A stretch of DNA of 64,000 bases from positions 2,102 through 66,101 of IMG/VR virus record IMGVR_UViG_3300020044_007046; one strand, 5' to 3'. The notes under the pieces were generated by a model that saw only the letters and a program-made list of their open reading frames with translations, was not told the origin of the DNA and made no database searches. Shown here piece after piece: positions 4,698-19,072 of the stretch. The position numbers and the translations under genes are program-made. Source of the stretch: a virus (taxonomy: Duplodnaviria > Caudoviricetes). The stretch's first letter is position 1, and each line of letters begins with the position of its first letter.

Positions 4698-4773
4698 TGG
4701 TACTCGGTACGAGATTCGAACTCGTGTGCTCGCCGTGAAAGGGCGGTATCCTAGGCCTCTAGATGAACCGAGT
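4698..4773 (-). tRNA. tRNA-Glu (TTC)
   Basis: ACTCGGT...CGCC-CTTTCAC-GGCG...TTCGAAT...ACCA. Confidence 0.9.
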
Positions 4774-15929: not shown

Positions 15930-16314
15930 CTGACCCTAAACTGTAATAAGTACGCTAATTTAAACTGCATACCCTTATGCAGCAACTGTATCAAAGACGT
16001 TGCCATTCTATACCGCAAGTGTTATAATAATTATAATTCGCAAAGTTTGTAATCAACTTTTACAATATGCATAAAAAAATTACACTTGTATATACACTAT
16101 CAAATGTGCTATAATTTAGTATAACTTGTTAAGAGTTAAAGACTAGACTGATTTTAGAAATTGCGTAAACCATCATGTGTGGGAGGGGTCCCCCCAGGGG
16201 TTGGGGCCTACATAATATGATGCGGTTTAGGGTCAATTTGATAAAATCTGTGTCTAGTCTTATTGCTTATCGACTATTACTGTATCTAAAATAAATCACA
16301 TATATTAAAATAAA

Positions 16315-17112
16315 ATGCTATTTAAAAAACAAGAATTACATTCAATCGACTTTGAACCCACTTATGGTAAATCGGTGGAATCTTTTGAAGTTTGGGCTGA
16401 ATCACACGAACTGTCCCACCTTTCCAGTTGGTTGCTGCCCCAGCTTGTTGCCTATTTTGGTAACTGGACTTTAGTTTATACAGACTCTGGTTCAGTTGAT
16501 TGTTTAGCGACTATTTACCACAACTGCCCTGACCCTCAGTCTAGGGCATTTTACACTTTGAGCAGGATTAAAAGATCAGTCCTAGTCTCAAACCAAACCA
16601 AGAGTCCTGATTACGCAACACTTACCCCGCTTATCTTAATGGGGCAAAAGCGTATGAGAGGAGTCAGTTACGAATCTTGGAGAACAGCTAAAGATCTTAG
16701 CTGGATGCTTGAGCCTAGGCTTTATGAAGCCCTAATGCTGGATCCTATGGTAGTAGAAAATTGCTGCAGTTTAGGGTCAGAAAGACTTATTGAAATTAGA
16801 GACCAAGGTCTTTTAGCTCGAACTGGAGTAAAAGCAGGCCAAACAAAGCCTGCTAAATCTACTTGGAGCTTGACTGGAATTCAAGACACAGAGTTAGGTA
16901 GTTTGCCAAAATTAACACAAACTATCCTAACTCAATGTTGGTTGGCACACCCTGAATCTAGAACATCTTATATGATCCTAGATCTACAAGACTGGGACTC
17001 AATGCCACAACCTTTAGTTACCAATGACATTTTTAAAGCACCAGTGCAAAAACCAGAACCAACCAAGAAACTAACAAAAGAGAAGGCAGAATTGCTGCCA
17101 TGGGACCTATGA
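16315..17112 (+). CDS. D2: T5 D2-like protein
   Basis: TLTPLILMGQKRMRGVSYESW...RTGVKAGQ...QCWLAHPESRTSYMILDLQDWD..PQPL...PW matches the T5 D2 pattern as recalled. Confidence 0.75.
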   Translation: MLFKKQELHSIDFEPTYGKSVESFEVWAESHELSHLSSWLLPQLVAYFGNWTLVYTDSGSVDCLATIYHNCPDPQSRAFYTLSRIKRSVLVSNQTKSPDYATLTPLILMGQKRMRGVSYESWRTAKDLSWMLEPRLYEALMLDPMVVENCCSLGSERLIEIRDQGLLARTGVKAGQTKPAKSTWSLTGIQDTELGSLPKLTQTILTQCWLAHPESRTSYMILDLQDWDSMPQPLVTNDIFKAPVQKPEPTKKLTKEKAELLPWDL

Positions 17113-17462
17113 AATACACCAAAGAAATCACAGACAAATTGATTGCAGACTATAAGGCAGGAGTGCCTGTTGCGGTAATAGCTCAAGGGCTAGATGTACC
17201 AGAACGTAGTGTGATTGCTAAATTAAGCTCTCTGGGCGTCTATACCAAGAAAAGCTATGTCAACAAGCGTGGTGAGGTACCAGTTAAAAAATCGGAGCAC
17301 ATCGAGCGTATTGCTGAGCTATTAGACGTGGATGAAGAATTGCTGGAATCGCTGGAGAAGGTAAATAAAACTGTACTTAAGCTAATTGAACACAAATTGG
17401 CCCAGGTTGACCCTAAACTGCCACAACTTGGCACAAAATCGGAGTTATTTGCACTTAATTGA
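17109..17462 (+). CDS. D3: T5 D3/A2-family DNA-binding protein
   Basis: RSVIAKLS...VY...VKK..H...LESLEK motif; directly follows D2 as in T5. Confidence 0.7.
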   Translation: MKYTKEITDKLIADYKAGVPVAVIAQGLDVPERSVIAKLSSLGVYTKKSYVNKRGEVPVKKSEHIERIAELLDVDEELLESLEKVNKTVLKLIEHKLAQVDPKLPQLGTKSELFALN

Positions 17463-17493
17463 CCCTAAGCTGAGCAAATCAGCCTAATTAAAA

Positions 17494-17530
17494 GAAAAGC
17501 CCACTTAAATTGCTTTAAGTGGGCTTTTTT
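17494..17530 (+). terminator. Intrinsic terminator after D3
   Basis: AAAGCCCACTTAAA-TTGC-TTTAAGTGGGCTTTTTT. Confidence 0.8.
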
Positions 17531-17647
17531 GCGTCTGTTACCGTGGTGGTCGTAATTGCACTGGTTTGTTGCGGTTTAGGGTCAGAACAGTCAAGAATTA
17601 CCACTTGACAAGATTTAGCACTATGTGGTATAATGGCGCCGAGCACA

Positions 17648-17687
17648 CAAAACAAAACCCCGTCACCATTACGTGTACGGGGTTTTG
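17648..17687 (-). terminator. Intrinsic terminator (possibly bidirectional)
   Basis: 11-bp stem CAAAACCCCGT/ACGGGGTTTTG with a T-rich tail on the minus strand. Confidence 0.75.
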
Positions 17688-18241
17688 AAAGCATTTACTA
17701 CTGCAGTAGCGTTGTCTTTTTTGCTCTAGCAGGACTATTAAGGGAATCACCACCGCCTGACCCTAAACTGTAGCCTGTCGCTACATACATCCGCTGGTGA
17801 TGAGTCCATTGCGATGTTGTTTAGGTGAGTATGCACGTTTCAGTCCTGTCAACCTCTACTTAACGCGAAGCGTCTCGATTGGGTATGCAAGGATATCCGT
17901 GACTAACTGGTTTAGATTTATGTGGTTCCGCACAACTGTTTTTTCAATTATTTTAACGACCCGCCACAGTTTAGGGTCGATGTGCGTCTTTAAGTATAAG
18001 CTGAAGCGCCCTTCGAATATACTCGCCAGAGAGATTCCATACTCTCATTACAGTCAATAAAGTCTGCTCTTGGTTAGAAGATAGCTGTATTTAATTTAGG
18101 AGTTCTTTCTCCTAGAGGTTCCTATGTTATGTTACCTCAAAACCAGTTAGCAAGTACGTATGCAGACGACGTGGGATATAGGTGGGACACGCTACCTAGA
18201 ACTACTCTTTACCTAACACCAGCAAGTGGTACACGCTAGGG

Positions 18242-18353
18242 ATTTCGTCCTGACCCTAAACTGCTGACATTTAGAAGTATTGAAGTCTTCAGGAATGTCT
18301 GCGATTGTAAAGGGTTTCGCCTGTATTTCAGAGGCTCATCAGAGGATTAAAAT
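18242..18353 (-). ncRNA. Type I hammerhead ribozyme
   Basis: Minus strand UCCU-CUGAUGA-GCCU(CUGAAAUAC)AGGC-GAA-ACCCU...AGGGU-C/AGGA: full core, stems I, II and III, GUC cleavage triplet at 18254-18252. Confidence 0.8.
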
Positions 18354-18763
18354 GGGCGATAACTTAAGTCTTTCAGTCATCATTAAAAACTTATCCAGTT
18401 CCATGGAGAGCTGGTCTTGGTTTACCCAATCTGTAGGGGGCTGTGGCTCGGGTAATTATTCCCCACAATTAAGACGCATAGCAGATATATCCCGCTTCCG
18501 CTGTCACCCTTATTCATCAATTTATATAATAATTATACAGTATTTAACACACTATATCAAGTAAGAAATTAGACACTCGTTGCAATCAGACTACTCACAA
18601 AACAGACTAATATTAATTTGCGTGGTTGAGGTGAGATTCATTTGCAGACGGACACCAACTTTCGCTGGTATTCATTAAGCCCTTCCCGACTGTCTAAGAT
18701 ATTATTATACATGAATTGGGGTTGAGGATCAAGAGTAAATTTTCTGACCCTCAACCGTTACAA

Positions 18764-19072
18764 TCAACGCAAGTTTGCGAGGATTGCTTCCAAGACTTCG
18801 TGATTGGCTTTTTCCAAGCTATCAAAAGTTTCTGGAGCTACACCAACTCGGTTGGCGATGCGATCAACCAATTCGGCTTTCTTAACACGGGCTACGCCAG
18901 TGCTCTTAGATTTGGCATGGTAAACTCCTTCTCTGGAGAGTTTTGCCACGATTGACCGAGTGGTCTTGCCAAACATTTCGGCCAAGCTTTCCACGCTTAC
19001 GCCGTCGTTGTATTTGGCTACGAGCTGAGCAGTTTGCTCAGGTGTGTAATTTACGGTTTTGTCAGTCATCAT
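18764..19072 (-). CDS. A2: A2-family DNA-binding protein, paralogue 1
   Basis: VNYTPEQTAQLV...GKTTRSIVAKLSREGVY...VKKAELV...DSLEKAN; own promoter TTGTAG-17-TATAAT. Confidence 0.7.
   Translation of the reverse strand: MMTDKTVNYTPEQTAQLVAKYNDGVSVESLAEMFGKTTRSIVAKLSREGVYHAKSKSTGVARVKKAELVDRIANRVGVAPETFDSLEKANHEVLEAILANLR

Follow-up and report, generated by a model that had tools for sequence, protein, structure and literature searches.

A complete type I hammerhead ribozyme can be read directly on the minus strand at positions 18353-18242 of a 64-kb stretch of uncultured phage DNA, hereafter called the window. The way in which it is conserved makes it probable that this is a functional, cis-acting ribozyme, catalytically competent and used as such, which would punctuate an early phage non-coding precursor. 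As deduced from sequence comparison, the hammerhead is the central module of a ~0.9-1.1-kb non-coding RNA of an uncultured T5-like (Demerecviridae-related) phage. The large terminase is ~50% identical to terminases of Demerecviridae Vibrio phages, and the phage is a distant relative of the T5-like phages; D5-like regulators, a thymidylate synthase and a tRNA cluster are also encoded in the window.

The elements of the ribozyme follow one another in the order stem I 5' strand, catalytic core, stem II hairpin, GAAA, stem III hairpin, C17 and stem I 3' strand. An earlier note on this DNA had listed them, and direct reading recovers each in its place. The 5' strand of stem I, UCCU (positions 2.4-2.1; 18346-18343), pairs with the 3' strand, AGGA (positions 1.1-1.4; 18251-18248). 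The core CUGAUGA (C3-U4-G5-A6-U7-G8-A9; 18342-18336), recovered both by direct reading and by a descriptor scan, is followed by the stem II hairpin (18335-18319), in which the strands GCCU (18335-18332) and AGGC (18322-18319) enclose the 9-nt loop CUGAAAUAC (18331-18323), and then by GAAA (18318-18315), which supplies G12-A13-A14 and A15.1. Stem III is a 63-nt arm (18315-18253) that begins with the pair between A15.1 (18315) and U16.1 (18253) and is laid out as P3a, an internal loop, P3b, a 3-nt bulge, P3c and an apical loop of 8-9 nt. In the window, P3a is ACCCU/AGGGU (18315-18311 with 18257-18253), and the 53-nt insert between its strands (18310-18258), which contains GACAUU/AAUGUC, carries P3b (GCAGACAUU/AAUGUCAGC; 18302-18294 with 18271-18263), P3c (GAAG/CUUC; 18290-18287 with 18277-18274) and a 9-nt apical loop (18286-18278). 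The window and its closer relatives have ACUUCAAUA as this loop; in the other relatives the loop mostly contains UCCCA. C17 is at 18252, with the predicted scissile bond between 18252 and 18251. Beyond stem I come a single-stranded joiner, CGAAAU (18247-18242), and the hairpin P4, in which CCUA (18240-18237) pairs with UAGG (~18215-18212). The topology is that of type I, with stem I open and stems II and III closed, as read directly and as found in the fold of the isolated 116 nt.

A hammerhead descriptor was composed of CUGAUGA, a stem II of at least 4 bp, GAAA, a stem III of at least 4 bp closed by A15.1-U16.1, H17 and a stem I of at least 3 bp. On both strands of the 64-kb window it matches at exactly one site, the 18353-18242 module, and it has no match in 300 simulated 64-kb sequences drawn from a first-order Markov model with the same dinucleotide statistics. 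The minimum-free-energy structure of the isolated 116 nt is the hammerhead fold, at a folding energy that is not unusual (z = -1.0).

Rfam does not report the module at gathering score, tRNAs being the only matches, and the window module reaches the curated gathering threshold of none of the hammerhead models RF00163, RF00008, RF02276 and RF03152. When the scan is narrowed, the core and the stem II half align to RF00008 with 25.1 bits (E 0.0013), against a gathering score of 48.5. Over 17400-18900 no Rfam family has a meaningful score, and the E-value mode returns only a partial RF00008 match. Canonical short hammerheads of other phage contigs likewise fall below the Rfam gathering threshold. 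We attribute the miss of the window module to model sensitivity and to the 53-nt insert in stem III rather than to the absence of the biological feature.

The final model-based alignment contains 42 distinct homologues, which come from three pattern scans in IMG/VR and one scan of metagenomes. In the nearest virus record compared, identity is 79-85% over the whole 1.1-kb non-coding region, and the ribozyme is identical except for one loop base. The core is kept in ~25 distinct homologues from the pattern scans. Since these scans fixed the core, loci were fetched instead via the neighbouring convergent 265-aa ORF, which gave 60 loci, 55 of them with enough downstream DNA to judge. The module lies on the expected strand, 1-2 kb beyond the 265-aa ORF, in 45 of these 55 informative loci, which makes ~45 related uncultured-phage contigs with the module at the matching syntenic place. 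C3, U4, G5, A6, G8, A9, G12, A13, A14 and the A15.1-U16.1 pair are all kept in 39 of the 40 distinct copies sampled through the ORF, where the core varies only at N7 (U/C) and H17 (C/A, never G). These are the two positions that the hammerhead consensus leaves free. The GAAA segment (G12-A13-A14 and A15.1) is invariant in all homologues, and A15.1-U16.1 is A-U in 42 of 42 sequences. The identification as a complete type I hammerhead with all invariant core nucleotides, made earlier from the window alone, is thereby confirmed, with a core invariant but for N7 and H17 and three stems that covary.

Stem I is rebuilt in the relatives as YCCU/AGGA, CCCU/AGGG, UCCA/UGGA, GCUAU/AUAGC, CUUCU/AGAAG, AUCUU/AAGGU and CCUU/AAGG. 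Its pair 1.1-2.1 is U-A in 39 and A-U in 3 of the 42 sequences and is never broken. The stem is 3-5 bp long, mostly with 3-4 Watson-Crick pairs per copy, and 23 of 42 sequences have a C.A mismatch at 1.4-2.4. An extension of stem I by AUUUU/GAAAU, which the earlier note had proposed, exists in the window sequence but is neither conserved nor compensated in relatives. An anchor-based, alignment-free parse shows stem II of the relatives as a 5-bp GCNNA/UNNGC helix with the loop UGNAAKU, in six distinct compensating combinations; the stem is 98-99.5% paired, with both-sided changes at 2-3 positions.

Compensated changes in stem III, again from an alignment-free parse, include ACUCACAGU/ACUGUGGGU, ACUCCCAG/CUGGGGGU, ACUCUCAGU/ACUGAGGGU and ACUCUAAGU/ACUUAGGGU, and the stem is 89% paired, with three covarying pairs and three one-sided (wobble) pairs. 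Every homologue folds individually into the same stem III rod, in which both-sided changes affect 3 of 8 pairs of P3a, 8 of 8 of P3b and 5 of 5 of P3c; in divergent relatives P3a reaches 8-9 bp with compensated changes. The inserted subdomain that had been noticed in stem III is thus real in its elements but is no incidental insert, since it belongs to a conserved arm of ~63 nt whose P3b and P3c covary at 13 of 13 pairs.

In a MAFFT alignment the core stems are 89.5% paired and have a covariation score of 0.259 against 0.105 when shuffled, a value reached in 0 of 500 shuffles, while slid controls give 0.02-0.09. The model-based alignment of 42 distinct sequences is 85.8% paired, with a score of 0.459 against 0.164 shuffled and both-sided changes in 21 of 30 pairs. 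Hairpin P4, 3' of the CGAAA joiner, also covaries (CCUA/UAGG, CCAGA/UCUGG, CAGGAG/CUCCUG, CCACC/GGUGG). Core conservation and covariation together give strong comparative backing to the cleavage site at 18252/18251 that had been predicted from the window. A core that varies only at N7 and H17 in the copies sampled through the ORF, with a stem I rebuilt in unrelated sequences, is the pattern that selection for catalysis would predict. It would be very unlikely to arise by chance, from a DNA-level motif or from a junction that is purely architectural.

A tertiary contact between loop II and stem I is needed for fast hammerhead cleavage at physiological Mg2+. The segments UAA, 5' of stem I, and CGAAA(A), 3' of it, are conserved as single-stranded joiners and are candidates for a contact with loop II. 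By inspection, no Watson-Crick covariation was seen between loop II (UGNAAKU) and the UAA/CGAAA flanks. A Watson-Crick pseudoknot between loop II and the 5' flank was considered and rejected, 3-4 bp being possible in some sequences without consistent covariation by inspection. The shortness of stem I and the putative nature of this contact would suit a purely structural three-way junction of hammerhead-like sequence that does not cleave, and large RNAs do use conserved junctions as architecture. Such a junction would, however, have no need to keep every catalytic nucleotide and a non-G17 in 39 of 40 copies while N7 and the helices drift, and other phage contigs contain canonical short hammerheads whose stem II loop is the same. 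We therefore regard a junction without cleavage as very improbable.

The substrate strand overlaps a repeated DNA motif. One full copy of the 14-bp motif GCAGTTTAGGGTCA is formed by the stem III 3' strand, C17 and A1.1, and ~12 copies are present in the window, on both strands and within and between genes. They lie at 15931-18757 and at 224, 6911 and 11193, and are densest around the RNA gene (15.9-18.3 kb), where the motif is equally dense in relatives (loci L001-L024). The 10-bp core TTTAGGGTCA has 19 matches at up to one mismatch against 4.8 expected, and 14 copies contain TTAGGGTC. The motif probably serves as the binding site for one of the small HTH/D5-like proteins encoded nearby, or else represents an origin or iteron cluster. 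Because of this overlap, part of the invariance of the substrate strand may have a DNA-level cause, which is probably why GGGUCA is more invariant than a hammerhead requires.

The full motif copy at the cleavage site and the excess of matches to TTTAGGGTCA could be taken to mean that the hammerhead is a chance match, or that its conservation comes solely from a putative protein-binding site in the DNA. The absence of matches in the simulated windows speaks against this, as do the remaining ~100 nt of the module, which are conserved with RNA-type covariation. Moreover, several relatives have CUGUGGGUC, CUGGGGGUC or CUGAGGGUC at the motif site, with the stem III 5' strand compensating, and so keep the ribozyme without the motif. 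The covariation data effectively refute this explanation, to which we assign next to no probability, and the DNA motif would not account for the ribozyme itself.

Other copies of the motif were considered as further substrates. Trans cleavage of motif copies was rejected, the other genomic copies having no stem I match at all. A second substrate copy cut by the same core, UUUAGGGUC followed by AGG (17766-17755), was likewise dismissed, AGG following GUC only in close relatives of the window and not in divergent ones. The motif also recurs in a different arm of the ribozyme: at the loci L260, L274 and L284 (and probably L237), stem II carries an insertion of ~35-55 nt with the motif in antisense (UGACCCUAAACUG), followed by CAGUUU.

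In contexts longer than the isolated module, thermodynamic folding favours pairings other than the hammerhead. In the 318-nt fold, as in the RNAalifold consensus for the entire RNA, the partner of the substrate strand is either the nearby CCCUA or the distant GACCCUAAA element; these long-context folds were weighted below covariation. They would fit a real hammerhead that is kept mostly uncleaved as a conformational switch, so that processing is regulated rather than constitutive, with the gate provided by competing pairings (the GACCCUAAA element downstream or a local GGG/CCC hairpin) or by a protein bound to GCAGUUUAGGGUCA. An antisense copy of the motif (17982-17971 in the window) is indeed found 150-370 nt downstream in nearly all relatives, and small HTH/D5-like DNA-binding paralogues are encoded next door. 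Yet the substrate-strand changes CUGUGGGUC, CUGGGGGUC and CUGAGGGUC are compensated by the stem III 5' strand, and no matching downstream change was seen by eye in the one case inspected, L027, where the nearest element is GACCCUG and not GACCCCCAG. The antisense copy, by inspection, pairs at least as well, and with compensated changes, with a second sense copy in the 3' domain (17769-17755). It would also be transcribed ~270 nt after the ribozyme is complete. As for a local hairpin of GGG(U) and (A)CCC around the cleavage site, it is always possible, but its downstream CCC is part of the covarying hairpin P4, and it was rejected as the main fold. A gated switch is, on balance, unlikely. All readings other than a competent ribozyme and such a switch would, taken together, account for only a small part of the probability.

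The competent ribozyme that we favour lies within a gap of ~1.3 kb in which no ORF is conserved. On one side it is flanked by a gene on the same strand that encodes an HTH/D5-like protein of 106 aa, on the other by convergent genes for proteins of 120 and 265 aa, and this gene order holds across the ribozyme family. Two sigma-70-type promoters on the minus strand are conserved in relatives. From the inner one (TTGATA-17-TATAAT; 18560-18532) the predicted 5' cleavage product is ~273 nt, and from the outer one (TTGATC-17-TATAAT; 18732-18704) it is ~446 nt if transcription reads through; the ~270 nt proposed earlier for the 5' RNA therefore stands for the inner promoter and not for the outer conserved one. 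An intrinsic terminator, CCCCG...CGGGG with a U tract (17682-17648, minus strand), was missed by a simple scanner because of its long loop. Its hairpin covaries in relatives (CCCCG/CGGGG versus GCCCC/GGGGC), and the predicted 3' cleavage product that runs to it is ~600 nt, in agreement with the length proposed for the 3' RNA in the earlier note.

The outer promoter and the next ~170 nt are nearly identical among relatives. Between the two promoters (18697-18560, minus strand), 140-170 nt are almost 100% identical and include a covarying GNRA-capped hairpin, ACCAGC-GAAA-GUUGGU, which is CCACA-GCAA-UGUGG in L011. This stretch would be the true 5' domain or else a small RNA of its own. A perfect consensus promoter (TTGACA-18-TATAAT with a TG extension) is present on the plus strand at 17605-17634, antisense to the large RNA and facing its 3' end and terminator. 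The nearest relative has kept this promoter, from which a short antisense RNA may arise or which may occlude the terminator.

The whole ~1.1-kb non-coding region (18732-17648, minus strand) represents a conserved, covarying RNA family without an Rfam match. Its layout comprises a 5' domain with the GNRA hairpin, a three-way junction, the hammerhead, P4 and a 3' domain of ~600 nt, the last with a probable long-range helix between 17982-17968 and 17769-17755. The 3'-domain elements after P4 are conserved and common to all subtypes. A blastn search of the 1.6-kb region against 50,697 phage records returned no match. The ribozyme model R1 has no match in phage T5 or in Vibrio phage 234P1, and a weak 14-bit match (E 0.125) in Vibrio phage D51. 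The ribozyme family seems to be confined to an uncultured clade, and the enclosing ~1-kb RNA family may itself be new. The host could not be inferred, because bacterial genome contigs gave only four small MAG contig matches.

A three-way junction domain lies directly 5' of the ribozyme (18417-18354, minus strand), with 13 predicted pairs of which 9 are changed on both sides. Its closing helix, GGU/GCC in the window and GG(Y)/(R)CC in general, ends at GCCCA, 6 nt before stem I. Neither ARAGORN nor Rfam called a tRNA or tmRNA in this domain of the window, whose own tRNA-Glu is at 4698-4773 and not beside the ribozyme. In many relatives the junction closing helix is followed by A-CCA, and in at least ten (L234, L243, L245, L249, L252, L281, L283, L039, L041 and L049) the hammerhead directly follows an inserted, real tRNA-Glu(UUC), whose CCA lies 1-4 nt before stem I. 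The unit of tRNA-Glu and hammerhead is duplicated in tandem in L281, which would place the cut of the first ribozyme ~10 nt ahead of the second tRNA. A contig of 100 kb (L032 and L035) carries two diverged hammerhead modules with compensated differences in P3b, each ~90 nt downstream of a tRNA-Glu. The position of the ribozyme directly behind a tRNA-Glu(UUC) or a CCA-ended domain, together with the tandem unit, argues that it would act as a transcript-punctuation device.

Hammerheads are abundant in phage DNA. Type I hammerheads of bacteria, phages and prophages have been described (Perreault et al. 2011, PMC3088659) and are represented by Rfam RF00163 and by the RAGATH-1 hammerhead, RF03152. 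The window module shares with them the core consensus, the open stem I topology, the GUC/GUA site and the non-coding location in phage DNA. It differs in its conserved three-segment stem III arm of ~63 nt with a conserved apical loop, in its stem I of 3-5 bp flanked by the conserved UAA and CGAAA joiners, and in its placement, which is not between genes but within a structured, conserved RNA of ~1 kb. Canonical type I hammerheads with a short stem III were also seen in unrelated phage contigs, namely L048, L051 and L056 (three copies each), L057 and L007; in the three-copy contigs the copies are spaced 0.7-1.2 kb apart, with a stem II nearly identical to that of the window (GCCUUUGAAAUACAGGC). 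One such canonical relative scores 37.6 bits with RF03152, whose gathering score of 56.3 it does not reach. With the type III hammerheads of viroids and satellites (RF00008), the core, stem II and loop II are almost identical to the consensus CUGAUGA-GYC-CUGAAAUA-GRC-GAAAC, but the window module has stem I open and stem III closed and belongs to a DNA phage, not to a circular RNA replicon.

Theta ribozymes, which are HDV-like, adjoin phage tRNAs and cut at their own 5' edge, so that the tRNA's 3' end is freed (Kienbeck et al. 2024, PMC10879173). Both they and the hammerheads next to tRNA-Glu in the relatives of the window belong to small self-cleaving classes placed directly 3' of a phage tRNA, and both are read as providing nuclease-independent processing. 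The ribozyme class is different, however, and so is the site: the hammerhead is predicted to cut at its own 3' edge, ~110 nt beyond the CCA, and would thus stay attached to the upstream module, whereas the cleavage site of theta ribozymes coincides with the tRNA end; no tRNA is present at this place in the window. The large structured RNAs GOLLD (RF01998), ROOL (RF03087), OLE and HEARO, known from phages and bacteria, are likewise long, ORF-free, covarying, phage-encoded and sometimes near tRNAs, but none of the family covariance models matches the 1.1-kb region of the window. To our knowledge, none of these four RNAs contains a self-cleaving ribozyme. A literature search for hammerheads that lie directly 3' of tRNA-Glu, within a large phage RNA or in any T5-like phage returned no paper. 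Hammerheads as a class are well known, and what is uncatalogued is the long-armed version and its setting.

According to the mechanism that we propose, host RNA polymerase would transcribe the ~0.9-1.1-kb RNA from strong sigma-70-type promoters in the early region of the phage. The nascent transcript would fold into a three-helix junction made of the short stem I, a stem II of 4-5 bp with its conserved loop of 7-9 nt, and the long stem III arm. The 2'-OH of C17 (18252) would then attack the adjacent phosphate, probably co-transcriptionally, and the precursor would be split in two. The 5' piece would comprise the upstream three-way-junction domain (tRNA-Glu in relatives) and the ribozyme, ending in a 2',3'-cyclic phosphate, and the 3' piece would be a structured RNA of ~600 nt with a 5'-OH at 18251. 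These ends are predicted from established hammerhead chemistry, which generates 2',3'-cyclic phosphate and 5'-OH termini. The ribozyme would in this manner separate RNA modules without a host nuclease. Cleavage in vivo, its co-transcriptional timing and the roles of the products are what we infer from the motif, its conservation, its covariation and its synteny as observed here. A biological use of the ends, through decay resistance of the 5'-OH RNA and its joining by RtcB as a substrate, is a suggestion of the earlier note.

A broader reading, which we offer tentatively as a possibility and no firmer than that, would make the hammerhead the hinge of an undescribed modular family of large RNAs in T5-like phages. 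Its modules would be the 5' domain with the GNRA hairpin, the three-way-junction domain (with a CCA-ended closing helix in relatives) or a true tRNA-Glu, the long-armed hammerhead, and the ~600-nt 3' domain. Self-cleavage would be an obligatory maturation step yielding an end-protected 5' piece, with the junction domain, the ribozyme and a 2',3'-cyclic phosphate, and a large RNA with a 5'-OH. The unit of tRNA-Glu and hammerhead would be a movable cassette, and the stem III arm and the overlap of the substrate strand with the genome-wide 14-bp putative protein-binding motif would couple RNA processing to early regulatory DNA-binding proteins.

Together these observations indicate that a whole clade of hammerheads with a long stem III escapes current Rfam models. 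The ribozyme is a fixed and syntenic part of a large conserved RNA, at the boundary between its 5' and 3' domains, which suggests a concrete role in processing, and the exact predicted ends of the products are defined as 18252>p and HO-18251. Should the products of cleavage turn out to be the forms that function, we would have here, to judge from the literature searched, the first large phage RNA to be matured by its own ribozyme.
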